NCBI GenBank assembly: GCA_963719505.1
Contig: CAVRCF010000004.1
Coordinates: forward strand, 64,001 to 128,000
Reading direction: 5' to 3'
Length of the DNA stretch: 64,000 nt
Origin: Halobacteriovoraceae bacterium
GTDB lineage: Bacteria > Bdellovibrionota > Bacteriovoracia > Bacteriovoracales > Bacteriovoracaceae
Position numbers and translations under genes: made by a program. Positions 22,536 through 42,095 of this stretch are shown here, piece by piece. Under the pieces are notes generated by a model. The model was not told the origin of the DNA and did not search any database. It worked only from the letters and a program-made list of their open reading frames with translations. Position 1 is the stretch's first letter, and every line of letters begins with the position of its first letter.

Positions 22536-24017
22536 TTAAAGTAAAAATTTGAGCAGCCAAGATGGGAGTGAAAGGAGTCTCATTTGCGTTAACCCACCCG
22601 GGTGATGACCGAAGCGATTAACTTCTTCTTTTGTTCTATTATCTCTCGCCTTTCTTTTTGCTAATATTTCCAAGCCATGGGAAATTCTAAGTTTAACATT
22701 ATCTGCGACTTCATCATAAAGTTTTTTACTTCCTTTGCAAAAGAGACCAAGCTCTGAATTGTAATGGTTGGATCTATTGTCTACATTATAGGTACTAACC
22801 ATAAATTCTAAGGTGTCATGACTTTCAAAAAGGTAAGTTTTTGAATGCGTACCCCACCGAGCATCTTTAATAGCGGGACTTATAACTTCTGTTTCAGGGA
22901 TAAATGAACCTTGATGGAGATTCGTTTTAATACCTTTTTTTCTCCACCTATAAACATCTTTGTAGAGGTTTGCTGCTACATATACGGCGTCTGTAGAAGA
23001 CAGTGAATTAGTATAAGTTTCAATTTCGACACCTTTTTCAAGCATCTTGTCCATTAATCTTCGCGAGTATTTATTGTTCAAAAGATAGGGAGATGAAATC
23101 GTCACTTTTTTATCTGTGGAACTCATTTTGTCGTAAAGTGTTTTTCTTAAATATCTATAGTCGTCTGAGTATGAGTCAACAAGTCTTCTCCAAAAAGTTG
23201 CCCCCGGTCTATCTGTAGACCAAGTGACTTCGGGGCAGAGACTAGAAGTGGCTTTGCTTAAAATGTTTTTTCCTAGGTTTCTTATTTTTGATAGTTTATT
23301 TTCATCTTGTTCAGATCTTACTAGGGTTTGCTGTGCTTTTTTCAAAAGAAGATCATAGTCTTTAGGTTTTTTGTCTTCGAGAATTGGAAAATTCACTCTT
23401 TGTGAAATTCTATGATCAAAATATTCATCAAAACTGGCTGCGATCGTTTTGACTAAAGGTCCTTCGACAACAACATCTCTATCTATAAAATTATATGTCT
23501 CTGATAGGTCAAAATAATCGTCTCCTATATTTCGTCCACCAATAATTGCGATTTCATCGTCGGCGATAAGAATCTTTCTATGGTTTCTAAACTGAATTGT
23601 TGAGACTCTGTAAAGGGGAGCTGAATTGTAGAATCTTAACTCCACACCATTTTGAGAGAGAACTTGGGAGTCGTATTTATCTAAGCTTACGATGGGCATT
23701 GATTTGTCTACCAATAGTCTGACTGAAACTCCTCTTTTTGCTGCTGCGACAAGTTCCTGGAGAATGATTCTTCCTGATAGATCCTTTTCAAAAATAAAAT
23801 ACTCTACCTCAATCGAGGTTTTAGCGTTTTGGATGAGTTGAATTCGTTTTTCAAGTGATCCTATCCCAGAGTTTAGAATAGTTAGGTAGTTGTTTTGATT
23901 ATTTTGCGCCGATTGAACTTCATAGTAAGGATATGGAATCCCTTGAGACAGTAAGGCCTCTTGTGCGATGGCACCAAGGGAGAGAACGAGCAAAAATGCT
24001 AAAATAAATTTCTTCAT
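22536..24017 (-). CDS. Secreted phospholipase D family protein (ClsC-like)
   Basis: HRKILIAD...GGRNIGDDY; second motif HSKTYLFE...STYNVDNRS; signal peptide. Confidence 0.9.
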   Translation of the reverse strand: MKKFILAFLLVLSLGAIAQEALLSQGIPYPYYEVQSAQNNQNNYLTILNSGIGSLEKRIQLIQNAKTSIEVEYFIFEKDLSGRIILQELVAAAKRGVSVRLLVDKSMPIVSLDKYDSQVLSQNGVELRFYNSAPLYRVSTIQFRNHRKILIADDEIAIIGGRNIGDDYFDLSETYNFIDRDVVVEGPLVKTIAASFDEYFDHRISQRVNFPILEDKKPKDYDLLLKKAQQTLVRSEQDENKLSKIRNLGKNILSKATSSLCPEVTWSTDRPGATFWRRLVDSYSDDYRYLRKTLYDKMSSTDKKVTISSPYLLNNKYSRRLMDKMLEKGVEIETYTNSLSSTDAVYVAANLYKDVYRWRKKGIKTNLHQGSFIPETEVISPAIKDARWGTHSKTYLFESHDTLEFMVSTYNVDNRSNHYNSELGLFCKGSKKLYDEVADNVKLRISHGLEILAKRKARDNRTKEEVNRFGHHPGGLTQMRLLSLPSWLLKFLL

Positions 24018-24075: not shown

Positions 24076-24091
24076 GGTTTACATAGGGGTG
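24076..24091 (+). repeat. 16-bp target site duplication of IS copy 1 (left)
   Basis: GGTTTACATAGGGGTG, repeated at 25417-25432. Confidence 0.95.
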
Positions 24092-25416
24092 TATAGAAAC
24101 TAGACGATTATGTCCTATCCTTATTTCTCAGCGATTATGTCCTATTCAATAATATTTATGTACCCTGATTCCAATCAGTTATTAGGGGAATTGAATGGGA
24201 AAAGTCACTATGTCACAAAAAGAATTGAAGCAGTATCGCCTGGCCATGGATGTTATTGAAGGTAAGTTAACTATAATTTCCTTCTCTGAACAGATTGGAA
24301 AATCGTATCGACAATCTCAGAGAATTATCAATAAAGTTAAGGCCAAGGGTTCGATTGGTGTCTTACATGGAAACATTAATCGAACTCCTCACAATAAAAC
24401 TCCATTCGAAGTTGAAGAAAAAATAGTCTCTCTTCTAAAAAATCAATATCGAAACTTTAATCTAACTCATTTTCGAGAAAAGATAGAAGAGTATGAGGAA
24501 ATTAAAATCAAAAAAGATGCACTTCACTCAATTGCTAGGAAACATTGCCTTGTAAAACATCCTAAACGAAGAGGAAGACGGTGCCATAAACCAAGAGCAA
24601 GACTTCCAAAAGAAGGGATGATGATTCAGTTTGATGGAAGTGATCATACTTGGTTCGGTGATGAAAGAACTGATTTGATTGGAGGAATTGATGATGCTAC
24701 CGGGATTGTTGTTGGTGCTGAATTTTTCTATGGAGAGACGTCAAATAACTCTCTGAAGGTGATTAGGGAGATCGTTGATAACTATGGATTGCCAGAAAGT
24801 TTCTATATGGACCAAGCAGGTATTTATGGTAAGAAAGAGCGCGAGTGGGAATCACAAATTTCGAGAGCATTTGATCAAACAGGAATTCAATTAATCTTAG
24901 CAGGTTCTTCTCAAGCAAAGGGAAGAATAGAGAGACTCTGGAGAACATTCCAAGACAGACTGGTAGCGGAGTTAGAATTTAATCACATAACAAATATTGA
25001 AGAAGCCAATTATTACTTAAAAGAGATTTTTATTCCTGCATACAATTTTCAATTCTCAGTCAAAGCCGAAGAAGAAGAAGAAAAAGCCTGGAGAAAAAAT
25101 GTTTTTGGAGACCTAGATATTATATTTTGTAAAAAGATTAGGCGAAAAATTATGGTTGGAAATGTATTTAGTTGGGAGAATGTGACTTGGGTGTTGGATG
25201 AAAAAAGGTGTTTCTATGGACGAGAAATCAATATAAATATTCACCTTGATGGAAGCTACAGCTTCGATGTGATGGGCAGAAAAGTTCAATGTAAAGTTAG
25301 TAATAGGAAAAGATTAAGTGACTATGGTGATAAGTCGAAACACAGAAAAAGCGCTTAAAGTCTGATAGGACATAATCGCTCAGAAATTAACCGGACATAA
25401 TTGCCCAGAAACAACA
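24092..25416 (+). mobile_element. IS1202-family (ISNCY) insertion sequence, copy 1, 1325 bp
   Basis: Ends TAT.../...ACA defined by comparison with copy 2; two ATTATGTCC-core subterminal repeats at each end in inverted orientation; 16-bp TSD. Confidence 0.93.
24195..25358 (+). CDS. DDE transposase (IS1202/ISNCY family)
   Basis: N-terminal HTH, QFDGS.H.W, IDDATG, YMDQAG, AKGRIERLWRTFQDRL. Confidence 0.95.
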   Translation: MGKVTMSQKELKQYRLAMDVIEGKLTIISFSEQIGKSYRQSQRIINKVKAKGSIGVLHGNINRTPHNKTPFEVEEKIVSLLKNQYRNFNLTHFREKIEEYEEIKIKKDALHSIARKHCLVKHPKRRGRRCHKPRARLPKEGMMIQFDGSDHTWFGDERTDLIGGIDDATGIVVGAEFFYGETSNNSLKVIREIVDNYGLPESFYMDQAGIYGKKEREWESQISRAFDQTGIQLILAGSSQAKGRIERLWRTFQDRLVAELEFNHITNIEEANYYLKEIFIPAYNFQFSVKAEEEEEKAWRKNVFGDLDIIFCKKIRRKIMVGNVFSWENVTWVLDEKRCFYGREININIHLDGSYSFDVMGRKVQCKVSNRKRLSDYGDKSKHRKSA

Positions 25417-25432
25417 GGTTTACATAGGGGTG
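25417..25432 (+). repeat. 16-bp target site duplication of IS copy 1 (right)
   Basis: Identical to 24076-24091. Confidence 0.95.
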
Positions 25433-25433
25433 T

Positions 25434-26444
25434 TTAAATTTTAGACAGCTTTGCGATACCCTCTAAGTCTTTGTATTGTTTTGATGTTTTAAAAAATCTT
25501 AGTGAATGATTATAAATCTCTTCCTCTGAAAAATTTAGTATTTTTCGGTAAGAATACTCTTTTCTTAAAAGCTTAATAAACTCGAAAGATACTTTTGGTA
25601 TGATTGTGCAGTCAAAGTTTTTGACATTATGACGAGCGTGAAAGTCTCTTTCACATGCGTAATTAGTCATTGCCGGTAGATCAAAGACTTGAATATTAAA
25701 AGTTTCTAACTCTTCTTTCATTTTTTCATGAATTTTAATTATCGCCGGGTTTTGATTGTAGAGAGTTTTCTTGTTTACAAGCTTTGCGATATTGAATTCT
25801 CCAAGGCCTGAAATTAAAAGAAGTCTCGAAAAACTAATCTTTCCTTCAATACTTTCCACGGTAATATTGGGGTTTGATAGATAGTCAAAATGAGTAAATT
25901 TATGAATGAGAATGTTTTGCATCTGTTCAGGGGCCAGGGTGATAGTGTCGCTATTGATAAGCATAAGGTTTTTAGCTTTTCCTTGTGAATCAGATGTGAG
26001 CATTGAGCCACTTGAACGTCTCGGACCTAAGGGCATGACATAAATTGAGCCATAAATGATTGAATCAGGATATTCTCTAATATATCTTTCTCTTGCTTTA
26101 TCAACTTCGCTCTCTATAAGGCTTGAGTTCTGAATGATCCTTTGACCGTGGATTTCGTAGAGCTCAAAGGCTGCCCAGAGATCTATTTTTTTACTAAGGG
26201 CGCCAGCTGGGTCAGTCCAAATCAACTTTGAATAAAGCGGCGCAAATTTCCCTTCCACGATTTCGTCCCAAAGTTCTAGTCTCTGGTAAAGGGGCTTTGA
26301 CTTAGCTTTATTCCAAAAAGCCTCAAAGCGAGCGGAGATATCAACGTAGTCAATATTATTTGTTTGAGTTACTTTGACCGGTGTGGAGCTACAGCCCCAG
26401 ACGGATATTCCTATAAAAAGAAATAGAATGAATGTGTTTGACAT
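25434..26444 (-). CDS. Lipoprotein, degenerate Zn-metalloprotease-like (DUF2268-like)
   Basis: SD GGAG before ATG 26444; lipobox VWGC; HKFTH in place of HExxH. Confidence 0.6.
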   Translation of the reverse strand: MSNTFILFLFIGISVWGCSSTPVKVTQTNNIDYVDISARFEAFWNKAKSKPLYQRLELWDEIVEGKFAPLYSKLIWTDPAGALSKKIDLWAAFELYEIHGQRIIQNSSLIESEVDKARERYIREYPDSIIYGSIYVMPLGPRRSSGSMLTSDSQGKAKNLMLINSDTITLAPEQMQNILIHKFTHFDYLSNPNITVESIEGKISFSRLLLISGLGEFNIAKLVNKKTLYNQNPAIIKIHEKMKEELETFNIQVFDLPAMTNYACERDFHARHNVKNFDCTIIPKVSFEFIKLLRKEYSYRKILNFSEEEIYNHSLRFFKTSKQYKDLEGIAKLSKI

Positions 26445-26472
26445 GCCAAACTCCGATTTGTATGCTGAAGCG

Positions 26473-27774
26473 ATGAACAATTCACTTAATCACATCATCT
26501 TGGTGGCGTCTATTATTTTGGCGCAAGTTTCTTATGCGGCACAAGGAAGTCTTGTGGATCAGAAACTTCAAAAATACATAAAAACTTTTGTTATCTCATC
26601 TCCTAAAACAGTTCCTGGTCGTGGCTCTAAAAAATTTGAATTTGGCAAAATGCTTTTTGAAGACAATGATCTCTCAGTGTCAAAAAATATAAGTTGTCTG
26701 TCTTGTCATAATCCCACGTTGGGATCATCAGATGCTTTGCCTTTTTCTATCGGCTCAGGCGGTGTTCACAATGGTTTAAAAAGTAAGCAGCTCTTGGCAA
26801 AACTCACTTCTCGAAGTTCTCCGCATCTTTACAATAAAGGGCATGACTCTTTTAGAACTATGTTTTGGGACGGGAGAGTTTTTTATGATGATTTTGAAGA
26901 CGCATACGAGACACCTGAGCCTGGACTCAATGGAAAGGCTCCCGTGTACAATGATATTGTTGAAAAGATAGAAAATGTTTTGAGCATGCAAGCACTTTTT
27001 CCGATTGCTTCAAGTGTGGAGATGAGAGGAGAGAGCTTTAAAGGTCTTAGTAATAGAGAGGTTTGGAAAAAAATTTCTGATAGAATTGCCAATAAAAAAA
27101 TCTATAAACAGTACATCACTCACGATTTCAATATTGCCGATATTGCGAATGCATTGGCTTTTTATCAAAAAGTTGAGTTTCAGGTCAACGACACACCCTT
27201 TGACCAATATATTGCTGGAGATCTTCAGGTTCTTTCTGATAAAGAGAAAGAGGGAGCTGTCGTATTTTTCGAAAAAGGGAGATGTTCTCGTTGTCATCAC
27301 GGTGCTCTTTTATCTAATCAAGCCTTTCAAGGGGTGGGAGTTCCTCAAATTGGACCAGGGCATACTAAAGATAAAAATGATGAGGGGAGATATCTGATAA
27401 CGGGAAAAGAATTTCACAAGTATGGCTTTCTCACCCAGCCACTGAGAAATATAGCATTAACAGCTCCCTTCATGCACGATGGATCTTTAAAGGATTTAGA
27501 AGCAGTTGTCGTCCATTATAATAATCCTTCTCGATCGATAGATGATTATTCCGTTAGAGACTTGCAGACACTATATAGTGGGATTTTCAACGATTTTATC
27601 TACGTTGATAAAAACCCTTATAGAAATATCTACAGAAAGCAGGCTATAGCTCCTCCTATAAAAGCACCACTGGGGCTTAACTCAAGAGAAATAGATTCCT
27701 TAGTTTGCTTTTTAAAAAAATCATTAACCCAACAGAAGTATCATTTTCAAGTTAATTTTTCTCAGTGCCAATAA
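26473..27774 (+). CDS. Di-heme cytochrome c peroxidase / MauG family protein
   Basis: CLSCH, MFWDGR, CSRCH, LRNIALTAPFMHDGS; start re-assigned to ATG 26473. Confidence 0.92.
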   Translation: MNNSLNHIILVASIILAQVSYAAQGSLVDQKLQKYIKTFVISSPKTVPGRGSKKFEFGKMLFEDNDLSVSKNISCLSCHNPTLGSSDALPFSIGSGGVHNGLKSKQLLAKLTSRSSPHLYNKGHDSFRTMFWDGRVFYDDFEDAYETPEPGLNGKAPVYNDIVEKIENVLSMQALFPIASSVEMRGESFKGLSNREVWKKISDRIANKKIYKQYITHDFNIADIANALAFYQKVEFQVNDTPFDQYIAGDLQVLSDKEKEGAVVFFEKGRCSRCHHGALLSNQAFQGVGVPQIGPGHTKDKNDEGRYLITGKEFHKYGFLTQPLRNIALTAPFMHDGSLKDLEAVVVHYNNPSRSIDDYSVRDLQTLYSGIFNDFIYVDKNPYRNIYRKQAIAPPIKAPLGLNSREIDSLVCFLKKSLTQQKYHFQVNFSQCQ

Positions 27775-29238: not shown

Positions 29239-29239
29239 T

Positions 29240-30647: not shown

Positions 30648-30673
30648 AAGCCCCCGATTAAATCGAGGGCTTT
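30648..30673 (-). terminator. Hairpin terminator after 30679-31095 gene
   Basis: AAGCCCCCGATT-aa-ATCGAGGGCTT imperfect stem. Confidence 0.55.
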
Positions 30674-30678
30674 ATATT

Positions 30679-31095
30679 TTATCTAAGTGTTGATCTACAG
30701 TTTGCAAAAGCTGATCTATGCGTATTGTTTTGTCTTACTCTCATTGTAAAGTTGTGGTTATCGTTTTCAAAAACTTGATTTGGAACTTCAAAAGTAATTC
30801 CTCTAATTCCTGAAAAATCTGTATTGATACATGTGCTATTTCCAGAACATCTTGCTCTATTGGTCCAAAGTCTATTGAAGACTTCGTAGCCTGGTCCAAA
30901 CATGTCTCTGATAACGAGAGTTGTTCCTGAAACATCTTCTTTTTCAACATTCATAAAATCTAGATCTGCTCTTCTGAAAACGACATTTCCAAAAGTACCC
31001 TCAACAACAAGCGGTCCACTAACACTACAGTTAATGTCTGCAGTTCCAGCAAAAACGGAAGTCGTAAGCATTAACGCTAAAATAAGCTTTTTCAT
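30679..31095 (-). CDS. Secreted hypothetical protein
   Basis: SD AAGGAG; signal peptide; 4 Cys. Confidence 0.75.
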   Translation of the reverse strand: MKKLILALMLTTSVFAGTADINCSVSGPLVVEGTFGNVVFRRADLDFMNVEKEDVSGTTLVIRDMFGPGYEVFNRLWTNRARCSGNSTCINTDFSGIRGITFEVPNQVFENDNHNFTMRVRQNNTHRSAFANCRSTLR

Positions 31096-31149
31096 AAAAT
31101 CTCCTTAAGGTTTTTTATCTTTTTTTCACACTCTGGCATTCAAGTCAAC

Positions 31150-31890
31150 TCAGTATGAGTTTGTTATATAGTATTCAAGTATTTGCACCAGCTCAATTTT
31201 CTTCTCTTTCAGGGTCTCTTTCTGGTCTTTATTCGTATTTGTGATCATTTGGCTTAGGAACTTAAAAAAACGCTCATTCAACTCATTGTTTTCATTGAGT
31301 GACTTGGTAAATAGAGCAAAAGCAGATTCAACCTGTTCGTAGGTCTTTGCTTTTTTCAGTGCCCTTTGAATTTTTAACCTTCTGTTTATTCTTTGTTTGG
31401 AAATATCTTTGAGAAGAGGCAGATTGCTTCTAATCAATTCTCGCTGACCATCATTGATATAGCCAAAAAAGCCATCGTATTTTTTGGCCACCGTTTTTAC
31501 TGTCATTTCATCAGCTTGTTCTTTAACGCTTTCGTTTTTCTCTTCTTGAAGCTTAAAAAACTCTTTCTTTTGTTCAACGGAAAGTTTGAAGTAGTATTTG
31601 GTAATAAGAGGCATCAATCTGTTGGTAATCTCTATGTATTGCTCTTTTAATCCTTCGATGGGGATGGGGCTATTGACATCCAGCTTGGAGATTTTCTTCT
31701 TGAGCAGCTTAGCTGTCTCTTTGTTTTGGTTGAGAAACTTTTTTACATCGACTCTCAGTTCGTCTTCTTGTTGGTCATTTAAGTTTAGTTCTCCGGCAAT
31801 TTTACTAGTCATAAGGTAGTCTAGCTTTGAGACGATGAGGCTTTTAAAAGAGCACGATGCTGATAGTAAGAGTATAAGGATTAATTTCAT
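31150..31890 (-). CDS. Lipoprotein (DUF6279-like helical protein)
   Basis: Lipobox SASC; LN.QQ and LS.EQ helical repeats. Confidence 0.6.
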   Translation of the reverse strand: MKLILILLLSASCSFKSLIVSKLDYLMTSKIAGELNLNDQQEDELRVDVKKFLNQNKETAKLLKKKISKLDVNSPIPIEGLKEQYIEITNRLMPLITKYYFKLSVEQKKEFFKLQEEKNESVKEQADEMTVKTVAKKYDGFFGYINDGQRELIRSNLPLLKDISKQRINRRLKIQRALKKAKTYEQVESAFALFTKSLNENNELNERFFKFLSQMITNTNKDQKETLKEKKIELVQILEYYITNSY

Positions 31891-32016
31891 AACTTTATCC
31901 TATCCAATAATGAACAAAATGTTGTGTAGATTAGTTCAAATTTGATTTTGGTGTACAGCGATATATCTATGGGTTAAGATGGAGGTTAATTTTTTTTTGG
32001 TCACTAAGGATTTGTT

Positions 32017-32853
32017 TTGTTATTAAAGTTGTTTTGCGTTGCACTGTTAGCCTTTCCTGTTTACTCACAAGTTTCGAGAAATTTTAATAAATCTTCACAG
32101 CCTAGGTTTGAAGGTGGTGTGGGCGCCATTGGTTTAAATATTCCAAACTACCCGGGAGCTGGCTCAAACACTGTTCGTTATATTCCTTTTCCTTGGATTA
32201 TTTATCGAAGCGATTTTCTTCATTCTGATGAAGAAGGGACGCGGGCAAAACTTATTCAATCTGAAAACTTTGAACTGGGACTCAGTGGTGGATTAAACTT
32301 TCCAATTGATTCGAATGCCAATTCCTCAAGAGAGGGAATGCCAGATACTGATATCCTGATTGGAGTTGGGCCAGCCCTCATCTATAGGATTGTAGAAGGG
32401 CACGATACGCATAAACTGACAGCTGGTTTAGGATTAAGGTTAAACCTCTCAATTGATGATCAGTGGGGATTAACACACCAAGGCTGGATTGTTGAACCAA
32501 ACCTTAGGTATTGGGCCACACTTACTGATAGCATTACTCTCTTTACAGGTTTAAGTTTTGCTTATGCCGATAAGAAATACAATCGTTTCTTCTACGAAGT
32601 TCCAGTGGAGTTTGCAACCTCTTCGAGAGAGGCCTATTCCGCTCAAGAAGGAACAGTAGATATCGCTGGATCCTTGGGTTTCTCTTACGACTACTCCAGT
32701 AAACTTGCTTTTTTTGCAGGCCAGTTCTACAGCAACCTCTCTACAGCATCGAATAAAGATTCACCCCTAGTCGAGAATATTCATAACAGTGGATACATCG
32801 TGGGTTTTAGATGGCAATTTTTTGAATCAGACGAAATGATAAAAAGAAAATAA
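32017..32853 (+). CDS. MipA/OmpV family outer membrane protein
   Basis: PNYPGA...PFP..YRS, REGMPD, Y.RFFYEV, DSPLVE. Confidence 0.85.
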   Translation: MLLKLFCVALLAFPVYSQVSRNFNKSSQPRFEGGVGAIGLNIPNYPGAGSNTVRYIPFPWIIYRSDFLHSDEEGTRAKLIQSENFELGLSGGLNFPIDSNANSSREGMPDTDILIGVGPALIYRIVEGHDTHKLTAGLGLRLNLSIDDQWGLTHQGWIVEPNLRYWATLTDSITLFTGLSFAYADKKYNRFFYEVPVEFATSSREAYSAQEGTVDIAGSLGFSYDYSSKLAFFAGQFYSNLSTASNKDSPLVENIHNSGYIVGFRWQFFESDEMIKRK

Positions 32854-32946
32854 AAATCTCTTTCCTGACTTTTTGACTCTGCTATTGCCCCCTTATTTTG
32901 TCTTACATTGACTAGAAAGATCGATTTCTTTGATCTAGCATTAGCT

Positions 32947-33615
32947 ATGAAAATTTTTATCCTACTTCTGTTGTGTTCTTTTAGTTCAGCCCTTTACGCT
33001 AATACCTGTTGTATTTGTCAAACGGGCGCCAAACCTGAAAATCAAACCCATTGGTTTAAAAAAGGTTGTCATGCTTGGTTATCTAAACAAAAGTCTTGCA
33101 CCAGTAAGAAGATTGTCGGCATTGAAAAAGATTCGATTATTGAAAGTGCGGCCAGCTGTGAAGATGGAAAAGTTAAACTTGGTTATGTTGGCCACTGGGG
33201 AAACTCTAATGAGTTGATTAATTTTATCGAAAACTCCTTGGCCCCCACCATTAAGTATTACAATGTCGAAGTTGATTACGATCAAACGGCTTGTACCTCT
33301 ATGAATAAGCCTCGTGTTATTGAGAGATTCTTCAAGACACTCAACTTGAATCGAAAACTGACAATTAAAGGCAATCAAGTTACAAGCACAGGTATCTGGG
33401 ACGATTATCTTCCACATAAAACAAATTTTTGGGCAAAGATTGATAGCGAAGAAAAAAAGATTGAGTTTCCAAGTTGCTCAGAATTTGAAAATAAGACCTG
33501 TTTTGGAAAATATCAAAAAAATGAATTCGGTAAATGTGTTGAAAGTGGCTCAATCGTAAAGCTATTTTGCGAAAAGGTTAGCTTTACAACTTATAAGTGG
33601 AAAAGAGATGAATAA
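32947..33615 (+). CDS. Secreted cysteine-rich hypothetical protein
   Basis: Signal peptide from ATG 32947; CCIC and further Cys; stop overlaps next start. Confidence 0.7.
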   Translation: MKIFILLLLCSFSSALYANTCCICQTGAKPENQTHWFKKGCHAWLSKQKSCTSKKIVGIEKDSIIESAASCEDGKVKLGYVGHWGNSNELINFIENSLAPTIKYYNVEVDYDQTACTSMNKPRVIERFFKTLNLNRKLTIKGNQVTSTGIWDDYLPHKTNFWAKIDSEEKKIEFPSCSEFENKTCFGKYQKNEFGKCVESGSIVKLFCEKVSFTTYKWKRDE

Positions 33616-35011
33616 ATTAATTGTCGGGTTACTTTTATTAAATATGAGTTTTGCCTCAGACCGTCTTCAGCGCTCTGAAACTGCGAAAACAGAACTTGAA
33701 AATTTAAATTTCTTTACCAAGGGTAGAGGGATGGTGATATCTCCTGATTTAATCAACATGTATGAAATTCTAAAAAAGACTGGCATAGGCTTAAGCACTA
33801 ATGGAATTTTAAATAAGCGTTGGGGATTGAATTTATTAGATAAAGAAGTAAAAGGACTTTTTAATATACCTTATAAAAATATGAATATGGGCGTTCTGGG
33901 ATGTGTGGCCTGTCACTCTGGAAGAGCAGCTGGTCAATGGATTATAGGTTTAGGTAACAAAAATATTGATGTTGGGCAGGTTGGTAAAGATGCCTATTTG
34001 GCCGAACTTATTTGGGGAATGGCACCAAGGCCTTCTAAACCAGAGTTTAGAGAAATTCACAACAGAGCACTGGCCTTCACGAAAATTTTAAAAAATGATA
34101 ATATTAATAATCTCACTCAAGGGCTTGTTCCAACCTCTTTGGTGAAAACTTGGTTTTATGAAATAAATGATGTTGAGATACCAAAACGATTTGGTAGGGG
34201 ACAAGTAAAAGTTCCCCATCTTTGGGGCTATGGAGAAAAAAGAAAAAGTGGCTCCTTTTGGGATGGTTTTGCCGATGGAGTCTATCCGGGCTGGGCCGTT
34301 GCCGTTGAGCTTAGAGGTGGTCAGTCTGTTGAAAACGTTAGAGGCTACGTAGATAAAGTTCATCATGCTGAAGATCTATTAGGCGACCTTCTTCCTCCTC
34401 GCTATCCCTTTGAGATCGATCAAGCTAGTGCCGCGAGAGGTTCAAAGACTTTTAATAAGTTTTGCATAAAATGTCACGGTGAACACGTAAGGGATGAGAA
34501 CGATCTACCTATTTTCAAAGAGTCAAAAGTGATTCCATGGAAGTATGTAAAAACTGATTATGAGAGGCTTGAATTTGTGACTGATGAGTTCTTGAGTTTA
34601 ATTGATAGCTCGCCCCTAAATGATCTTATGAAGTATAAAGACCGTGAAGGGAAAGGCTATGTCGCTCCAAGGCTTTGGGGTGTGTGGTCAAGGTTTCCCT
34701 ATCTCCACAATGGTTCAGTGCCTACTGTAAGAGACCTTTTAAGTTTACCAAAAGATAGACCAATTGTTTTCAATTTGCATAGAGCTGGAGAGTTGGATCG
34801 TTACGACCGTGAAAAATTTGGATTAATAGTTAATAGAGATCCCAATTCAAAGTCCTATAAAAAAATGCTTCGCGCGGCGAAACGAGGAAAGAGAAGTCTT
34901 TATTTTACTGAGAGAATGGGCCATGGCAATCAAGGTCATGCTTTTGAATTTTATAAAGAGTTAACGGAAGGTGATAAAGATGATCTGATAGAGCATCTCA
35001 AAACCTTATGA
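33608..35011 (+). CDS. Secreted di-heme c-type cytochrome, RoxA-like
   Basis: CVACH, CIKCH, GYVAPRLWGVW..PYLHNGSVPT, GNQGH.F, LIEHLKTL. Confidence 0.8.
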   Translation: MNKLIVGLLLLNMSFASDRLQRSETAKTELENLNFFTKGRGMVISPDLINMYEILKKTGIGLSTNGILNKRWGLNLLDKEVKGLFNIPYKNMNMGVLGCVACHSGRAAGQWIIGLGNKNIDVGQVGKDAYLAELIWGMAPRPSKPEFREIHNRALAFTKILKNDNINNLTQGLVPTSLVKTWFYEINDVEIPKRFGRGQVKVPHLWGYGEKRKSGSFWDGFADGVYPGWAVAVELRGGQSVENVRGYVDKVHHAEDLLGDLLPPRYPFEIDQASAARGSKTFNKFCIKCHGEHVRDENDLPIFKESKVIPWKYVKTDYERLEFVTDEFLSLIDSSPLNDLMKYKDREGKGYVAPRLWGVWSRFPYLHNGSVPTVRDLLSLPKDRPIVFNLHRAGELDRYDREKFGLIVNRDPNSKSYKKMLRAAKRGKRSLYFTERMGHGNQGHAFEFYKELTEGDKDDLIEHLKTL

Positions 35012-36096
35012 CCCAAAAACACTACCTTCATAAACTGGATTCTCTCAGAGGTATTGCGGCCTTTATGGTCGTTATTCTTCACTTCCAAGACTATCTCGCT
35101 CCGATTATAAATGAACTTCTGCTCAAAGTGACTCCCTTTATACATAGATCCTACATCTTAGTTGATATGTTTTTCATTCTCTCCGGGTTTGTCATGAGCT
35201 ATACGTATCATGAAAAATTCAAAGACGGTGTTAACCTTTCTAAATATAAAAAATTTATGCTTAAAAGGTTTTTCAAGTTATACCCTCTTCACATCGCAAC
35301 ATTTTTGTTTCTTGTTATTTTCCATCGTTTCTTTTTACCATTTTTTGATATCCCACCAAGTGATTTTGTTTTAAATCGAAACAATTTTCATATTTTGACA
35401 AATCTTACACTTTTGCAATCATCTGGTATTGGGTGGGGGGATTGTTTTAATTGTTCAAGCTGGAACTATCCTTCGTGGTCCATTTCTGTTGAGTGGATTA
35501 GCTATTTCTTCATTCCCTTATTGATGTGGATTTTTCGCCGAAATAAATTTTTAAGTTTTGGTCTGGTCTCCGTTTTGTATCTAGCTTTTTATTTTCTTGT
35601 CGAAGTTCCCATCGGAAATACAGATGTCCTAACACTAAGAGGTATTGTCAGATGTTTAATTGGTATGGCTTTTGGTATAAGTATTTTTTACCACGCTTAT
35701 AAAAAGTTCGAAGTAAAGAATGCTTTATTCTATCTCTCATTTTTTGTAGCCTTTCTCTCTTTGCACTTTGTTCCCATTGATACAATTTGTATTGTTTTGA
35801 TGGGTATAATGCTGATGCTAACTTCCAATCTTAAAGAAAGTAATTTTTTGGATTCTAAAGTCCTTCTATGGCTTGGTAAGAGATCTTTTTCCATCTATAT
35901 GGTTCATGTCTTAGTTCAAGACTCAGTCGACTTTGCCATTAGATTTGTCTTTGATAGAAGTCTTTATGACGCCAGCGCATGGCTGCAAATAATTGTTTTT
36001 TTAGGGGCCATTTGCCTCGTCTTTCTAGTCGCCGAGATAAGTTATAAACTGATAGAAAAACGACTTAATTCGTTCTTAAGAAGTAAGTTTTTGTAA
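35008..36096 (+). CDS. Acyltransferase-3 (OafA-like) membrane O-acyltransferase
   Basis: LDSLRGIAA..V...H, VDMFFILSGFV, R..KLYP, SWSISVE, GKRSFSIYMVH, SYKLIE. Confidence 0.92.
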   Translation: MTQKHYLHKLDSLRGIAAFMVVILHFQDYLAPIINELLLKVTPFIHRSYILVDMFFILSGFVMSYTYHEKFKDGVNLSKYKKFMLKRFFKLYPLHIATFLFLVIFHRFFLPFFDIPPSDFVLNRNNFHILTNLTLLQSSGIGWGDCFNCSSWNYPSWSISVEWISYFFIPLLMWIFRRNKFLSFGLVSVLYLAFYFLVEVPIGNTDVLTLRGIVRCLIGMAFGISIFYHAYKKFEVKNALFYLSFFVAFLSLHFVPIDTICIVLMGIMLMLTSNLKESNFLDSKVLLWLGKRSFSIYMVHVLVQDSVDFAIRFVFDRSLYDASAWLQIIVFLGAICLVFLVAEISYKLIEKRLNSFLRSKFL

Positions 36097-36201
36097 AAAA
36101 ATTTAGACATCTTTGTTTCTTTACATTTTTTGAGTCTTTGGTCATTATTTATTTATGCTCGAAAAATGAGCAGACAAATTTTTATGAACAAGGAACAGAT
36201 T

Positions 36202-36396
36202 ATGAGTACAGGTACAGTAAAATTTTTTAATGAAACGAAAGGTTTTGGTTTCATCACACAAGACGACAATGGAGAGGACCTTTTTGTTCACATCTCAGCA
36301 ATTGAAAGCGGAGAACTTCGTGAGAATGATAAGGTTGAGTACGAAGTTGGAGAGGGAAGGAAAGGTCCTTGTGCTGTAAATGTAAAAAAGCTTTAA
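36202..36396 (+). CDS. Cold-shock protein (CspA family)
   Basis: [28 protein letters not shown] before ATG 36202. Confidence 0.97.
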
Positions 36397-36414
36397 ATAT
36401 TTTTTATATTGGAG

Positions 36415-36440
36415 AAGGAAGCTAGTAGGCTTCCTTTTTT
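36415..36440 (+). terminator. Rho-independent terminator of the csp gene
   Basis: AAGGAAGC-tagtag-GCTTCCTT followed by T run. Confidence 0.75.
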
Positions 36441-37108
36441 ATTTCGATCTCTTCAAGCTCTTCACTAATTTTATATTCCCATTTTTTATATGCAGGTAAT
36501 CTTTTTCTAAAAAATGGATAAACCATAAGTCCCGTAAAAACACCTATAAAAAATCCGATATAGTGAGCTAAATAGCTTGTCGTGGGTGAGTAGCTAGTAG
36601 GAACAAGTAAAATAAAAAAAATGGCCAAAACTTTTACCAGTCTTCTTGCAAAGCTAATAGTCTCATCAATAAATAGGTAGAGAACAAACCAAAAACCCCA
36701 AAGATAGTAGATGACGCCAGATATGCCAACAAGTGTTGTGTTGTCTTTAAAAGTATAGAGGACGCAAAGGTTAATAAACGCACCCATGACAAGACTTAAA
36801 GGAATTGAGACAAAATATCCATAAAAAGATGAAACAAAATATGTGAGAAATAAAAGCATGAGACTATTACTCAGAAGGTGTTCAATATCACCATGAGCGA
36901 AGAGGGTTGTAAAAAGTCTCCAATACTCCTTCGCCTTAAAAATATTTTCTGGATTGGCGCCAATCAATTTTGATAATTGAAAATCATCATTCCAATAGAA
37001 GAGACTTGTAATAATACAGGCCGAAAGAAAGAAAGCTGAAACAACCAGACCGAAGTTATACTTTTTTTTACTGAGATATGTGTCAACAAGTTTTGATTCA
37101 ATTATCAT
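36422..37108 (-). CDS. Rhomboid family intramembrane serine protease
   Basis: WRL, H.D.EHLLSN, GISG, AHY.G. Confidence 0.92.
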   Translation of the reverse strand: MIIESKLVDTYLSKKKYNFGLVVSAFFLSACIITSLFYWNDDFQLSKLIGANPENIFKAKEYWRLFTTLFAHGDIEHLLSNSLMLLFLTYFVSSFYGYFVSIPLSLVMGAFINLCVLYTFKDNTTLVGISGVIYYLWGFWFVLYLFIDETISFARRLVKVLAIFFILLVPTSYSPTTSYLAHYIGFFIGVFTGLMVYPFFRKRLPAYKKWEYKISEELEEIEIKKEAY

Positions 37109-37366
37109 GTTAAGAATATGAGGTTGAAAAGATTTTTGTCAACCTTCAGCCCCTTTGCCAATATATCATTTTAGAGACATTGAATTCACAGATAAACGTT
37201 CGATAGGGACAAAGAAAACAAAACCCTTATGATCTTTTATCCTTATATTTCAAGTATTTGAGGGAGTCTCAAAGGACTTAAATTTCTCTGAGAGAGTCTA
37301 TGTAAATTATTTATAGAGGTTTGATTTTGGGTGGTCAGTTGATTTTGGTTGTGCTACGTTGCGCAA

Positions 37367-37858
37367 ATGAAAACTATAGATACAAAAACTCCAAAAAAGA
37401 AGAATCCTGCACCTATTGATCCAGGGGCCCATAACTTTGGCCGCCTAAGTCGTGAGGATAGGTTTACCACTGTTTATATTGGCAATATGTCTTATGAAAA
37501 AGATGAGTTTGAGATTAAAAAGCTTTTTTCAACCTACGGAAAAGTAACTTATGTAAGGCTTGTTAAAGATCAAAAAACCAGTAGAAGTAAAGGGTTTGCT
37601 TTTGTTCAAATGCCTACTGAAAAGGATGCTCTCTATGCTATCGAGAGGCTAAATGGATCGAAGATGGATGGCAGAACTTTAAAAGTTTCTGTAGCCGTTG
37701 AGAACGATACGATTATTAAAACAAGAAATGGTGAACCTACAAGTGGCCCTATCAAAAGAGTTAAAGGTGAAGATGCTCCTGAGGTTGAAGCACCAAGAAA
37801 CAGAAGAAGAGATAAGAAAAAAGGCCTTGACCTTTTATTCGAAAATACTAGATCTTAA
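37367..37858 (+). CDS. RRM (RNP-1) RNA-binding protein
   Basis: VYIGNM (RNP2), KGFAFVQM (RNP1), GRTLKV; start re-assigned to ATG 37367. Confidence 0.92.
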   Translation: MKTIDTKTPKKKNPAPIDPGAHNFGRLSREDRFTTVYIGNMSYEKDEFEIKKLFSTYGKVTYVRLVKDQKTSRSKGFAFVQMPTEKDALYAIERLNGSKMDGRTLKVSVAVENDTIIKTRNGEPTSGPIKRVKGEDAPEVEAPRNRRRDKKKGLDLLFENTRS

Positions 37859-38849
37859 TTGCAAGTCCAAAAACTGGAATAGTAAATAGCCTCTCATTGA
37901 GGCTATTTTTTTTGATTTCTTTCTTTAAAAAGGTTTTTGGATCATTGTAACCCTCGTCGGTAAGTTTAAAAGTTCCAAAATGAATTCCTATCATCGTCTT
38001 TGTTTCCAGATCTTTGAAAGCTTCAATAGCATCAGCAGGATTCATATGGGCAGCTTTCATAAACCATCTTGGCTCGTAGGCGCCAATAGGTAAAAGAGAG
38101 ACATCTGGCGCCCCTAATTTTTCTTTGATCATTTTAAAAAATGATCCATAGCCCGTGTCTCCAGCGAAATAAATTGATCTTGATCCTTTTAGATAAAATC
38201 CTCCCCAAAGCATTTCTCTTCTATCGAAGAGTCCTCTGGCAGACCAGTGCTGAGCCGGAACAAAAGTAATTTTTAGATTTCCTTGTGAGACCTCTTGCCA
38301 CCAGTCTAAGTCTTGAGCTTTTTCGATTCCTTGTTCAGCTAAAAAATCTTTGGTTTCTAGCCCGGCTAAAATCTTTGGTTTATGCTTTTTTGCGATGATC
38401 CTTAAACTATCAAGGTCGAGATGATCATAGTGGTTGTGAGAAATAAGGACGATATCTATTAGTGGAAGGTCATCTATTGCAATTCCAGGTTTTACGACTC
38501 TCTTTGGTCCAATAAAGCTAAAAGGGGAGGCCCTTTGTGAAAAATGAGGATCAGTAAGAATATTGATATTATCGATCTGGATGAGAGCGGTTGCATGATT
38601 GATTACGGTGATCACAAGCTCATTAGATCTTTCAAAAAGTGGCTTATATTGTTTTGACTCTACTTGATCTGGCCACGGGACTGAGTTTTCTATCCCTCGA
38701 ATTTTCCACTCCAAAAGTTTAAAAAGACTTTTATCGGCAAAAGGCTCAATATTTTGGAATTGGTCTCCAATTCTTTTAGCCCCTTGATTTGCGCTCCAGG
38801 CAAGTGAGTTCACGTAAATAAGGGAAATTATTAGTAAAAGTATATTCAT
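37848..38849 (-). CDS. MBL-fold metallohydrolase (NAPE-PLD/RomA-like), secreted
   Basis: ILTDP, SHNHYDHLD, PAQHWS, FAGDTG, PIGAYEP, IHFGTF. Confidence 0.92.
   Translation of the reverse strand: MNILLLIISLIYVNSLAWSANQGAKRIGDQFQNIEPFADKSLFKLLEWKIRGIENSVPWPDQVESKQYKPLFERSNELVITVINHATALIQIDNINILTDPHFSQRASPFSFIGPKRVVKPGIAIDDLPLIDIVLISHNHYDHLDLDSLRIIAKKHKPKILAGLETKDFLAEQGIEKAQDLDWWQEVSQGNLKITFVPAQHWSARGLFDRREMLWGGFYLKGSRSIYFAGDTGYGSFFKMIKEKLGAPDVSLLPIGAYEPRWFMKAAHMNPADAIEAFKDLETKTMIGIHFGTFKLTDEGYNDPKTFLKKEIKKNSLNERLFTIPVFGLAIKI
37884..37913 (+). terminator. Rho-independent terminator of the RRM gene
   Basis: AAATAGCCTC-tcatt-GAGGCTATTT plus T run. Confidence 0.7.
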
Positions 38850-38890
38850 CAGTAGTCCTTTTTAGAGTATAATATGCCCTTGGAGGCACT

Positions 38891-39442
38891 ATGAAAAAGG
38901 TATTTCTTTTCATCATTCTATTATCAAATGCTTATTCAGCCCAGATTGAATGGCCTAAAAACAATGCTGTCGCGTATATCGCGCAAAAGACCATGTTTTT
39001 TTTCAAAGATGTTACCGTCATAGGTATAAATTCAAATATAGCCTTTAGTAAAGCCACTTTAAATGAAGGAATCATTTTGACAATGAGTATTCCAATCGCT
39101 GACTTTAAAAGCGGCGATGAGGATAGAGATGAGGAAGTGAGAGAGATTTTAAAGGTCAAAAAGAGTAAGTTCTTAATTTTTCGCTCAGTCAAAATGAGTA
39201 AAAAAGATTATCAACAAATGCTTGAAGGCGATCCCTTTTATGTCGATGGACTATTGGCGATTGGAGACAAGAATTTTCAAGTTAAATTTAGAAGTCTAAG
39301 AGAAGATCAACATATGTTATTTGACTTTGAAACGACATTTAGTAACTTTGATATAGAACCTCCAAGTGTGGCTTTTGGAGCAGTTGCTAAAGCCAAAGAT
39401 TACCTTGTACTGAAAGCAAAAATTAATATCAATGACTTCTAA
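38891..39442 (+). CDS. YceI-like secreted protein
   Basis: FKSGDEDRD, G.L.IG, F.IEPP motifs; TATAAT and SD GGAGG upstream. Confidence 0.75.
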   Translation: MKKVFLFIILLSNAYSAQIEWPKNNAVAYIAQKTMFFFKDVTVIGINSNIAFSKATLNEGIILTMSIPIADFKSGDEDRDEEVREILKVKKSKFLIFRSVKMSKKDYQQMLEGDPFYVDGLLAIGDKNFQVKFRSLREDQHMLFDFETTFSNFDIEPPSVAFGAVAKAKDYLVLKAKININDF

Positions 39443-39451
39443 AGGATGCAT

Positions 39452-39628
39452 ATGTTTGGCTTATTTAAAAAGAACCCGTTGAAAGACCTAGAAAAGCAAT
39501 ATGCGAAAAAGCTTGAGGAAGCTATGAACGCCCAAAGAAATGGTAAAATGGACGTCTATGCCAAGCTTTCCACAGAAGCGGAAGAAATTGGAAAGAAAAT
39601 GGATGAGCTAAAACTGTCTAAAAATTAG
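39452..39628 (+). CDS. DUF6435 (Lacal_2735-like) small protein
   Basis: MFGLFKK.P...L.KQY..KLEEAM.AQRNG....YA. Confidence 0.75.
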   Translation: MFGLFKKNPLKDLEKQYAKKLEEAMNAQRNGKMDVYAKLSTEAEEIGKKMDELKLSKN

Positions 39629-39629
39629 A

Positions 39630-39645
39630 CGTATCCCTGTAAAAT
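39630..39645 (+). repeat. 16-bp target site duplication of IS copy 2 (left)
   Basis: CGTATCCCTGTAAAAT, repeated at 40971-40986. Confidence 0.95.
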
Positions 39646-40970
39646 TGTTGTTTCTGGGCAATTATGTCCGGTTAATTTCTGAGCGATTATGTCCTATCAG
39701 ACTTTAAGCGCTTTTTCTGTGTTTCGACTTATCACCATAGTCACTTAATCTTTTCCTATTACTAACTTTACATTGAACTTTTCTGCCCATCACATCGAAG
39801 CTGTAGCTTCCATCAAGGTGAATATTTATATTGATTTCTCGTCCATAGAAACACCTTTTTTCATCCAACACCCAAGTCACATTCTCCCAACTAAATACAT
39901 TTCCAACCATAATTTTTCGCCTAATCTTTTTACAAAATATAATATCTAGGTCTCCAAAAACATTTTTTCTCCAGGCTTTTTCTTCTTCTTCTTCGGCTTT
40001 GACTGAGAATTGAAAATTGTATGCAGGAATAAAAATCTCTTTTAAGTAATAATTGGCTTCTTCAATATTTGTTATGTGATTAAATTCTAACTCCGCTACC
40101 AGTCTGTCTTGGAATGTTCTCCAGAGTCTCTCTATTCTTCCCTTTGCTTGAGAAGAACCTGCTAAGATTAATTGAATTCCTGTTTGATCAAATGCTCTCG
40201 AAATTTGTGATTCCCACTCGCGCTCTTTCTTACCATAAATACCTGCTTGGTCCATATAGAAACTTTCTGGCAATCCATAGTTATCAACGATCTCCCTAAT
40301 CACCTTCAGAGAGTTATTTGACGTCTCTCCATAGAAAAATTCAGCACCAACAACAATCCCGGTAGCATCATCAATTCCTCCAATCAAATCAGTTCTTTCA
40401 TCACCGAACCAAGTATGATCACTTCCATCAAACTGAATCATCATCCCTTCTTTTGGAAGTCTTGCTCTTGGTTTATGGCACCGTCTTCCTCTTCGTTTAG
40501 GATGTTTTACAAGACCATGTTTCCTAGCAATTGAGTGAAGTGCATCTTTTTTGATTTTAATTTCCTCATACTCTTCTATCTTTTCTCGAAAATGAGTTAG
40601 ATTAAAGTTTCGATATTGATTTTTTAGAAGAGAGACTATTTTTTCTTCAACTTCGAATGGAGTTTTATTGTGAGGAGTTCGATTAATGTTTCCATGTAAG
40701 ACACCAATCGAACCCTTGGCCTTAACTTTATTGATAATTCTCTGAGATTGTCGATACGATTTTCCAATCTGTTCAGAGAAGGAAATTATAGTTAACTTAC
40801 CTTCAATAACATCCATGGCCAGGCGATACTGCTTCAATTCTTTTTGTGACATAGTGACTTTTCCCATTCAATTCCCCTAATAACTGATTGGAATCAGGGT
40901 ACATAAATATTATTGAATAGGACATAATCGCTGAGAAATAAGGATAGGACATAATCGTCTAGTTTCTATA
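39646..40970 (-). mobile_element. IS1202-family (ISNCY) insertion sequence, copy 2, 1325 bp
   Basis: Reverse complement of copy 1, same length and ends, own 16-bp TSD. Confidence 0.93.
39704..40867 (-). CDS. DDE transposase (IS1202/ISNCY family)
   Basis: 387 aa, identical to copy 1 except KHGL versus KHCL. Confidence 0.95.
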   Translation of the reverse strand: MGKVTMSQKELKQYRLAMDVIEGKLTIISFSEQIGKSYRQSQRIINKVKAKGSIGVLHGNINRTPHNKTPFEVEEKIVSLLKNQYRNFNLTHFREKIEEYEEIKIKKDALHSIARKHGLVKHPKRRGRRCHKPRARLPKEGMMIQFDGSDHTWFGDERTDLIGGIDDATGIVVGAEFFYGETSNNSLKVIREIVDNYGLPESFYMDQAGIYGKKEREWESQISRAFDQTGIQLILAGSSQAKGRIERLWRTFQDRLVAELEFNHITNIEEANYYLKEIFIPAYNFQFSVKAEEEEEKAWRKNVFGDLDIIFCKKIRRKIMVGNVFSWENVTWVLDEKRCFYGREININIHLDGSYSFDVMGRKVQCKVSNRKRLSDYGDKSKHRKSA

Positions 40971-40986
40971 CGTATCCCTGTAAAAT
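40971..40986 (+). repeat. 16-bp target site duplication of IS copy 2 (right)
   Basis: Identical to 39630-39645. Confidence 0.95.
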
Positions 40987-41057: not shown

Positions 41058-42095
41058 ATGATGTTTAAAAACAAGACCGCTTCAGCCTTAATTCTAATGT
41101 CTCTTGCCCTAACACTTCCTTCGTGTGAGATGGCAGACAATGCCGCTAAAGCTTCTGAAAACTCCGGAAAGGCGGCTAAGGCCGCAAGTGACTCAAGAGA
41201 GGAAATTGCCAATTCAAGATTAATGGCCAGATCAGGTGCCGCTTCCGCTTCGAGAAGAGAAGCCCTTGAAGGTATTATGGCGATGGATTCAATAAGTATG
41301 AAAATTACTGAGGCTTCAAAATACGTTAAATCCTTTGAGTTTCAACTCTGGACGGGTCAAAGGTACGATACTCAGGCTTATAAAGAAAGTATGTATGAAG
41401 ACGCTATGAGTGAGCTTTTTAGGTCGGTAGAGGAGCTTTATGGCAAACCTATAGCAGGGCAGGAATTATCTCCCTTTAAAGCCTTTAGTGGAGCAAAGAA
41501 CAACAACATGAATGTCTATGCTCTTGCAGTCTCAATGCACGGAGTTCATCAAGTCCAAGGTGTCTCAACAACCAATAAAGCCTATAAAGGTGAAGATTCA
41601 ATCTACGATATTATCAAAAACTCATTGAGGTCTATCAAAAAGGTAGAAAATGGGACGGAGTCTTTCAGTTCGCTCAAAGAGCATGAAATAGTCGTTTATA
41701 ATTACAAAGAGGAAGCTCTCGCTTTAATTCAGGCCCGCTATAATATGCTTCTGACAATGAATCTTGCAAAAGTGTCAGATCTTAAAAAAAGTACCGTTTC
41801 GGGTTTGAGTCTTTTGTATTTTAAAAAGTCATTTGATTCAAAAATTACGAATATCAACCTTGGTGAGCAAAAAGAAGCTAATAAGTATTTAGATGCAGCG
41901 CTTAAGGTTCAAGACTTTATGCAGGAGATTGGTGAGAGGACTATCGTCAACGATAAGATAGCAAAGATCTATTCAAAAATGAGAATTTCCCAAACTGACT
42001 CGGTCATCATCTCGGATATAACAACGATGGAACAAAGACAAAGTAACAGTAATGTTGATGAACATAAATCTTTGTTAGACAAACTTGGTTTATAG
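41058..42095 (+). CDS. Lipoprotein, hypothetical
   Basis: SD GGAG; lipobox LPSC. Confidence 0.75.
   Translation: MMFKNKTASALILMSLALTLPSCEMADNAAKASENSGKAAKAASDSREEIANSRLMARSGAASASRREALEGIMAMDSISMKITEASKYVKSFEFQLWTGQRYDTQAYKESMYEDAMSELFRSVEELYGKPIAGQELSPFKAFSGAKNNNMNVYALAVSMHGVHQVQGVSTTNKAYKGEDSIYDIIKNSLRSIKKVENGTESFSSLKEHEIVVYNYKEEALALIQARYNMLLTMNLAKVSDLKKSTVSGLSLLYFKKSFDSKITNINLGEQKEANKYLDAALKVQDFMQEIGERTIVNDKIAKIYSKMRISQTDSVIISDITTMEQRQSNSNVDEHKSLLDKLGL

Follow-up and report, generated by a model that had tools for sequence, protein, structure and literature searches.

Two inverted copies of a 1326-bp insertion sequence (IS), herein termed IS-A, were located in a 64,000-nt stretch of a Halobacteriovoraceae bacterium genome (the window, that is, the whole stretch analyzed: assembly GCA_963719505.1, contig CAVRCF010000004.1, positions 64,001 to 128,000; G000:C4:64001-128000, where G000 denotes this genome). 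Both copies appear to represent a site- and orientation-specific element of the ISTde1 type that lands beside a palindrome of the host and carries a copy of that palindrome at its left tip, an explanation to which, taken as a whole, we assign a probability of roughly 0.55. It builds on the geometry of insertion, its specificity, the resemblance of tip to target, the occurrence of the target as a host-wide motif, and the insertion of other elements at left tips, each of which was observed.

The preliminary description of this DNA had drawn attention to two 15-mers, at 24091-24105 and 40957-40971, and both the coordinates and the letters it gave were correct, the second 15-mer being the reverse complement of the first. 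Specifically, they form the outermost bases on the transposase-proximal (left, IRL) side of the two IS copies, which lie within inverted arms (24078-25452 and 39610-40984) of 1375 nt and 99% identity. Alignments of ends and flanks set the borders of each IS and of its 15-bp duplication (Table 1). Directly after the duplication on the right (IRR) side stood a 6-3-6 palindrome, perfect at copy 2 and with one mismatch at copy 1. The IRL tip was itself a 6-3-6 palindrome with one mismatch, and the right tip had no such palindrome and was unrelated to the left. The earlier claims that the ends are asymmetric and that the left junction replicates the unoccupied target were thus borne out by the end alignments, in that a palindrome-like 15-mer abuts the same 15 bases at that junction. 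Because tip and target 15-mer share their first two bases, the border between IS and duplication is ambiguous by up to two bases. In a copy at a weak site (C4:173859-175184), at least the second ambiguous base is IS sequence, which fits the earlier division of the 15-mer into 14 bp of IS and the first duplicated base. The empty site referred to here is a reconstruction from the duplications; comparison of both copy 2 flanks with three other genomes of the genus, which are too diverged, did not recover an empty allele and returned only short coding stretches on different contigs. Contigs from three public metagenome runs contained IS-internal pieces only and were uninformative on circles, tandems, and empty sites.

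BLAST searches of the genome exposed eight copies of IS-A (99.8-100% identity) and five copies of a relative with 66% identity. Duplications of 15-16 bp flanked 11 of these 13 copies, and a palindrome directly followed the IRR-side duplication in 10 of the 13 (five of eight for IS-A, five of five for the relative). For both IS types, the palindrome-proximal end was always the right end. Nine of the ten palindrome targets reached at least 14.9 bits on a matrix trained on nine targets from other genomes (hereafter the foreign matrix), on which 52 positions in the whole genome reached at least 14 bits. The three other copies differed from one another: one lay at a weakly matching site (8 of the 12 specified bases), one, which lacked a duplication, had nothing in the palindrome's place, and one had the inverted left tip of the 66% relative there. 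The last of these lacks its left duplication, which points to a later rearrangement. Two of the eight IS-A copies were without duplications (C1:698290-699615 and C1:1060370-1061695), a state that points to adjacent deletion or to recombination between copies; the former abuts a solitary 30-bp left end of the 66% relative, the remainder of which is gone.

Left and right tips were then compared on a matrix trained on the ten target 15-mers of this genome, tips excluded. The left tips of IS-A and its 66% relative scored 10.4 and 11.9 bits, as compared with -30.5 and -28.0 bits for the right tips, and the fraction of genomic 15-mers reaching 10 and 12 bits was 4.0e-5 and 1.9e-5, respectively. The resemblance of left tip to target is therefore beyond chance. 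Moreover, tips had served as targets in six independent events, all on the inner side of the tip: in four cases an IS66-type element lay next to a left tip, with the 8-9 bp offset typical of it, and for IS-A copy C1:698290-699615 and one relative (L004) 15 bases separate the insertion from a related element's left tip. The left tip behaves as a target, because the IS66-family element inserts into left tips at the offset that it keeps from palindromes. Of the earlier suggestion that the left end may regenerate a target for tandem insertion, the first part is supported by these six events, and the second is not, as no tandem arrays were found among the 13 copies of this genome. A coincidental resemblance, or a misplaced IS boundary, could draw on the two ambiguous bases shared by IS and duplication. 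We consider it highly improbable given that the tip score is matched by so small a fraction of the genome at a single fixed position, that the resemblance is present in ten tip-bearing elements with 49-80% transposase identity, that six insertions have used tips, and that the weak-site copy shows at least one ambiguous base to be IS sequence.

The IS66-family element is 1750 bp long, generates 8-bp duplications, and was present in nine copies in the genome, none of them in the window (for example, G000:C2:394000-395749; also L041:101-1850). Its transposase matched Pfam DDE_Tnp_IS66 with 92.8 bits; a score of 162.9 bits on the NCBIfam IS66 model fell short of the 180-bit cut-off. Five of the nine copies were separated from a palindrome of the type described above by one 8-bp duplication plus 0-1 base, and two of these five had entered the two IS1202-type elements at their left tips, in both cases at the same inner position. 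Two or three further copies lay beside weaker dyads. In other genomes, 4 of 19 IS66-type ends had a match of at least 10 bits at offset 8-9, for which the expectation was 0.0008 per end, and left tips of relatives had been struck by the IS66-type element in two additional genomes (L047, L071). The IS66-type element was also located beside the palindrome in genomes without the IS1202-type element (G039, G181). The preliminary description had named, as evidence that would speak against its reading, related elements with this target and unrelated left ends. Such evidence was encountered in part, as the IS66-type element shares the target and has unrelated ends.

The palindrome itself is a feature of the host. 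On the foreign matrix, this genome had 24 sites of at least 16 bits, versus 5.3 ± 3.6 (maximum 20) for 100 column-permuted palindromic matrices, and 10 sites of at least 18 bits, versus 0.94 ± 1.2. Twenty aligned sites formed a dyad of 17-21 bp, consisting of the 15-bp palindrome and its flanks. Of the bacterial family, 149 of 151 genomes matched a profile of these 20 sites, built from sequence only, at E ≤ 3, a single genome having as many as 56 matches when both strands were counted. Among the motif-rich genomes were G003, G004, G017, G031, G032, G139, and G170, in which neither transposase was found at thresholds of E ≤ 1e-20 for the IS1202 type and E ≤ 1e-30 for the IS66 type. All of the 20 best sites, which came from 19 other genomes, were intergenic, with a gene start 2-262 bp away. 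A hydrophobic N-terminal segment was encoded by 25 of 29 flanking genes in other genomes and by 19 of 27 in this genome, where the background was 1694 of 3866 open reading frames (ORFs). Flanking genes that could be assigned to a Pfam family included those for phospholipase D, trypsin-like and subtilase peptidases, an amidase, and a multicopper oxidase, and BLAST clustering of 56 flanking proteins returned two pairs only. Tens of intergenic copies of the palindrome are thus present in each genome across the family (for example, L136-L155, near position 1501), mostly 2-262 bp upstream of genes whose products have hydrophobic N-termini, and the palindrome is a candidate operator of some regulon. 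That it might instead be the end of a miniature inverted-repeat transposable element (MITE), or part of a cluster of repetitive extragenic palindromes (REPs), was rejected because all-against-all BLAST of 255-bp windows around 31 sites recovered only the IS and a 17-27 bp motif.

Several other observations concerned individual sites. One further palindrome was present in the window, at 12490-12504. A free 15-mer elsewhere in the genome (G000:C2:222914-222928), 93 bp upstream of a multicopper-oxidase ORF (L089), was a one-base variant of the 66% relative's left tip. A run of C and then a -35-like hexamer followed a subset of the strong palindromes (about 7-8 of 34), as on the reverse strand at 24076-24090, and the C-run flank recurred beside a left tip in another genome (L047).

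We also identified the arrangement of tip, duplication, and palindrome outside this genome. It was found at five loci in metagenome-assembled genomes assigned to Halobacteriovoraceae, Bdellovibrionales, Bdellovibrionaceae, Bacteriovoracaceae, and Pseudobdellovibrionaceae, and further such loci came from the class as a whole, where 31 of 238 genomes searched had a match. For nine distinct loci in other genomes, both a palindromic left tip and right-flank sequence were available. The downstream matches at these loci scored 14.9, 14.2, 17.4, 6.7, 12.1, 19.6, 18.7, 9.6, and 17.0 bits and were positioned 43-78 bp past the transposase stop, with the 6.7-bit match being the left tip of another element. 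The left tips of tip-bearing elements were positioned 101-110 bp before the transposase start and ranged from 3.4 to 20.6 bits. In contrast, among relatives with symmetric ends none of 22 loci, four of which were copies of a single element flanked by clean 17-bp duplications, reached 9.6 bits in that region, the best match being 9.1 bits and 176 bp away. In the transposase phylogeny, the tip-bearing sequences formed a single supported clade (support 0.99) of 13 rows, for two of which the tips are unknown, and no sequence from an element with symmetric ends was placed inside it. This topology indicates that the palindromic tip and the palindrome target arose together, once. Covariation of left end and target motif, which had been proposed as a check, was not seen at a fine scale within the clade, where the target consensus is constant and the tips vary.

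Against the explanation given at the outset stand a number of results. The tips are weaker sites than natural ones (10-15 bits as compared with 17-22), and those of two relatives (L001, L002) have drifted to 3.4 bits with targets that are still canonical. The joint origin of tip and target makes their association one evolutionary event and not repeated covariation. With respect to the host motif, E-values for so short a profile are rough, 54 candidates per genome were scored, and the permuted controls cover this genome only; one of the nine targets behind the foreign matrix was a left tip included by mistake; and the genome is 83.5% complete, such that copies may be missing. The test for N-terminal hydrophobicity is crude and has a background of 44%. 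The flanking genes had no function in common, with no Pfam family for 24 of 29 in other genomes and 16 of 27 in this one, and neither a recurrent regulator gene beside the best sites nor a palindrome-binding protein was identified. Of three orthologous sites in genomes of the same genus, one was partly kept (11 of 15 bases) and two were absent. Finally, four of the six reading frames of the palindrome include stop codons, a property that by itself biases it toward intergenic DNA and gene ends (for example, 25434 and 39626-39628).

An alternative account places the specificity in the transposase, which would read the left tip, and hence its look-alikes in the genome, the host motif being a convenient look-alike. 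Such a mechanism would be akin to the way in which IS30 and IS911 target inverted repeats. In its geometry, the right junction (IRR, 15-16 bases, palindrome) is a copy of a circle junction (IRR, left-flank bases, IRL), so that target choice would be equivalent to the circle-formation reaction. For ISKpn21, of the IS1202 family, a circle junction with the left-flank repeat between the ends is described, the proposed reaction being an attack of the right end on the left (10.1101/2022.12.17.520857). IS30 selects both hot spots and its own inverted repeats as targets, and IS911 shows targeted insertion next to its own ends (PMC9333248). The account also explains why palindromic tip and palindrome target came together in one clade, and it agrees with the two insertions, C1:698290-699615 and L004, that lie 15 bases from related left tips. 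We nevertheless think it rather unlikely, because an unrelated IS66-family transposase uses the same palindromes and tips at a fixed offset of its own, genomes that lack the IS are also enriched in the palindrome, tips have decayed to 3.4 bits while the target is unchanged, the insertions carry normal duplications, in contrast to one-ended inverted-repeat targeting in IS30, and the transposase alignment contained no inserted domain specific to the clade. The first and third of these points also weaken the suggestion in the preliminary description that one specificity of the transposase serves both end and target.

Under the explanation that we prefer, in which a host palindrome is the target and the left tip its copy, the landing site would be a conserved cis-element of the host, over-represented across the bacterial family and positioned mostly between genes, upstream of those for proteins with hydrophobic N-termini. 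Integration would involve a 15-16 bp staggered cut abutting the palindrome, always with the IRR adjacent to it. In this clade, the outermost 14-15 bases of the left end would have been remodeled from symmetric ends, such as sister elements retain, into a degenerate copy of the palindrome. After insertion the far side, usually a promoter and gene start, again has a palindrome-like 15-mer at exactly the original distance. The divergently oriented transposase gene likewise has the 15-mer, ~104 bp upstream of its start. The same agent would mark the palindrome as a target and recognize the left tip, and this agent would most likely be a dimeric host DNA-binding protein exploited by both the IS1202-type and the IS66-type transposases. 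We infer that such a protein binds palindrome and tip, with an effect on the neighboring gene or on transposition. The potential roles of the tip, in regulation of the neighboring gene, in control of the transposase, and in assembly of the transposition complex, are mutually compatible. A more specific proposal, which we advance only tentatively, is that a conserved regulator of genes for exported proteins uses the palindrome as its operator, that the bound regulator acts as a beacon for two unrelated transposases, and that the left tip reproduces this operator in functional form. If so, each insertion would provide the displaced promoter with a replacement operator, the transposase gene with the same regulator, and other elements with a new beacon.

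The genes around the insertions bear on what the tip might do. In eight of nine intact insertions the left end faced a gene start 56-481 bp away, and in five of nine the palindrome side faced a gene end, so that the IS usually lies between the palindrome and the promoter region of the next gene. In three of the nine, the palindrome side also faced a gene start. By the logic of the duplication, the tip stands exactly where the palindrome had stood relative to the downstream DNA. At two sites, by our reading, a -35-like hexamer was located inside the duplication and a -10-like hexamer 17 bases later; a fixed promoter geometry was rejected, as such hexamers occurred at varying distances from the palindrome.

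The central proposal of the preliminary description was that the tip restores the host operator of the displaced downstream gene and renders the insertion nearly neutral. As a selected function, this would be compatible with a host palindrome target and its copied tip, and we regard it as possible, with the balance of probability against it. The tip adjoins the duplicated bases in just the way that the palindrome had, most insertions separate palindrome and gene start, promoter-like hexamers are present at two sites with one of them within the duplication, the motif occurs upstream of genes across the bacterial family, and a constant landing place would impose constant selection for a built-in replacement. 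The lower scores of the tips than of natural sites, the decay of the tip in L001 and L002, the inconstant position of promoters relative to the palindrome, and the gene starts on the palindrome side in three of nine insertions all argue the opposite. Somewhat less probable again, and equally compatible with the preferred explanation, is that the tip was taken from the host regulon as an operator for the promoter of the transposase gene, any effect on the neighboring gene being a by-product. Its distance from the transposase start is 101-110 bp in all tip-bearing elements, which is within the 2-262 bp that separate the best host palindromes from genes, and a symmetric palindrome could serve both directions. 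Against such a role, subterminal repeats that are presumed to bind the transposase intervene between tip and gene.

With regard to the identity of the element, its 387-aa product matched the NCBIfam 'ISNCY family transposase' model NF033594 (313 bits, cut-off 250), and a Pfam integrase-core match was below the cut-off (17.6 versus 26). NF033594 would correspond to the IS1202 group, given that published work places this group in ISNCY. Length, duplication size, and doubled 9-base repeats assign IS-A to the ISTde1 subgroup of the IS1202 family, an assignment made from described features. ISTde1 has 1327 bp, a 17-bp duplication, and a 394-aa transposase (PMC10132070). IS-A is similar in having 1326 bp, a 387-aa transposase, duplications in the range of 15-17 bp, and repeated inner sites at both ends; counting ambiguous bases, the duplications of the 11 copies extend to at most 17 bp and remain within the 15-17 bp of the subgroup. 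In the IS1202 family, the inner part of the terminal repeat has a second, internal copy at each end (PMC10132070), and the 9-base repeat of IS-A was indeed present twice near each end. These repeats are the presumed transposase binding sites mentioned above. A conserved three-base terminus starts both ends in the ISTde1 subgroup (10.1101/2022.12.17.520857); it was present at the right end of IS-A, and at the left end only if the preceding target base was counted, which differed in two of eight copies. The element departs from the subgroup in its asymmetric ends, a left terminus that needs a target base, and its strict target.

For the IS1202-family groups with long duplications, two sources state that no target could be found (PMC10132070; 10.1101/2022.12.17.520857). 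Titles and abstract openings of the papers retrieved from 2023 on contained no later report of such a target. The closest parallel is the ISAba32/ISAjo2 subgroup of the same family, which targets XerCD dif/pdif (xrs) sites (10.1101/2022.12.17.520857; PMC10132070). Both insert orientation-specifically beside a short host site with dyad symmetry, with the duplication between IS and site, and in both several elements can share one site. The differences are as follows: the duplication is 5-6 bp there and 15-16 bp here; the site-proximal end is the left end there, 5 bp from the XerC arm, and the right end here, with a spacing of 15-16 bp; the site is an 11-6-11 dif-like sequence there and a 6-3-6 palindrome at ~25 places per genome here; and the far end carries a copy of the site here, none being reported in the available text for the dif-targeting group. 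Site form, proximal end, and spacing rule out membership in the dif/xrs-targeting ISAba32 type.

IS30 and IS911 are similar to IS-A in preferring both their own end and a class of genomic sites, and in their orientation-specific junctions (PMC9333248). They differ in that end-to-end junctions arise there by one-ended transfer (PMC9333248), whereas here duplications are normal and the end is hit from its inner side, and in that the target here is common to an unrelated IS. Inverted-repeat targeting of the IS30/IS911 type was rejected, since end-to-end junctions were found in none of the 13 copies and normal duplications in 11. There is precedent for one host protein on both an IS end and a preferred target, namely IHF, with sites in IS1 ends and in the pBR322 hot spot of that element. 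A host-factor site confined to one end has a precedent in IS5 (PMC11043490). The present system differs from IS1 in its fixed base offset, which is far more precise, and in that the host protein is only putative; for such a protein, the family-wide presence of the motif and the use of both palindromes and tips by a second IS family provide indirect support. Lastly, IS of several families target REPs, and in those cases, too, short host palindromes are fixed-position landing sites for unrelated IS families (PMC1525189). Insertion there is within the REP, and REPs are far more numerous (PMC1525189); here, the elements insert next to the palindrome, of which one IS bears a copy.

The clade thus provides elements of the IS1202 family with long duplications with a strict target, with base-precise spacing and a fixed orientation. 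This orientation is opposite to that of the dif-targeting subgroup, which makes it a second, contrasting case for site choice by a family of TnsB-like transposases. An end that copies its target offers a way to ask whether an IS can offset the regulatory damage that it causes, and a site shared with an IS66-type element points to a landmark of the host. The conserved palindrome upstream of many genes for exported proteins in Bacteriovorax-like predators is itself a candidate regulon signal.

Table 1. Coordinates of the two IS-A copies, their landing sites, and adjacent genes (positions in the window).
Feature	Coordinates	Strand	Details
Phospholipase-D-domain gene	22536..24017	-	Pfam PLDc_2, 98 bits; start 74 bp from copy 1 left end, facing that end
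Target-site duplication, left copy, IS copy 1	24076..24090	+	Identical to 25417-25431
IS copy 1 (IS-A, 1326 bp), ISTde1-type IS1202-family element	24091..25416	+	8 genome copies, 99.8-100% identity
Left (IRL) tip of copy 1, 6-3-6 palindrome with one mismatch	24091..24105	+	10.4 bits on target matrix
9-base subterminal repeat, two direct copies (24107-24115, 24134-24142)	24107..24142	+	Also inverted, twice, near right end
Transposase gene of copy 1, 387 aa	24195..25358	+	NCBIfam NF033594, 313 bits (cut-off 250)
Target-site duplication, right copy, IS copy 1	25417..25431	+	
Host palindrome, landing site of copy 1	25432..25446	.	18.0 bits, matrix trained on other genomes
Small ORF, 60 aa	39446..39628	+	Stop codon inside palindrome; 77%-identical coding stretch in same-genus genome
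Host palindrome (perfect 6-3-6), landing site of copy 2	39616..39630	.	20.5 bits on foreign-trained matrix
Target-site duplication of copy 2, IRR side	39631..39645	+	Identical to 40972-40986
IS copy 2 (1326 bp)	39646..40971	-	99.85% identical to copy 1
Transposase gene of copy 2	39704..40867	-	
Left (IRL) tip of copy 2, noted 15-mer	40957..40971	-	
Target-site duplication of copy 2, IRL side	40972..40986	+	
345-aa gene, no Pfam family, lipoprotein-like N-terminus	41058..42095	+	Start 87 bp from copy 2 left end

Both landing palindromes in the window overlap the end of a gene (Table 1), with that of copy 1 overlapping the stop codon of an ORF on the reverse strand (25434..26480). In a genome of the same genus, the counterpart of the 60-aa ORF (L038) lacked the palindrome and differed at its C-terminus. 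Copies 1 and 2 stand in inverted orientation and enclose 14.2 kb (25417-39645), toward which both right ends point. A separate duplication flanks each copy, and they are therefore independent insertions and not the product of one composite move. Recombination between them could flip the 14.2-kb segment.

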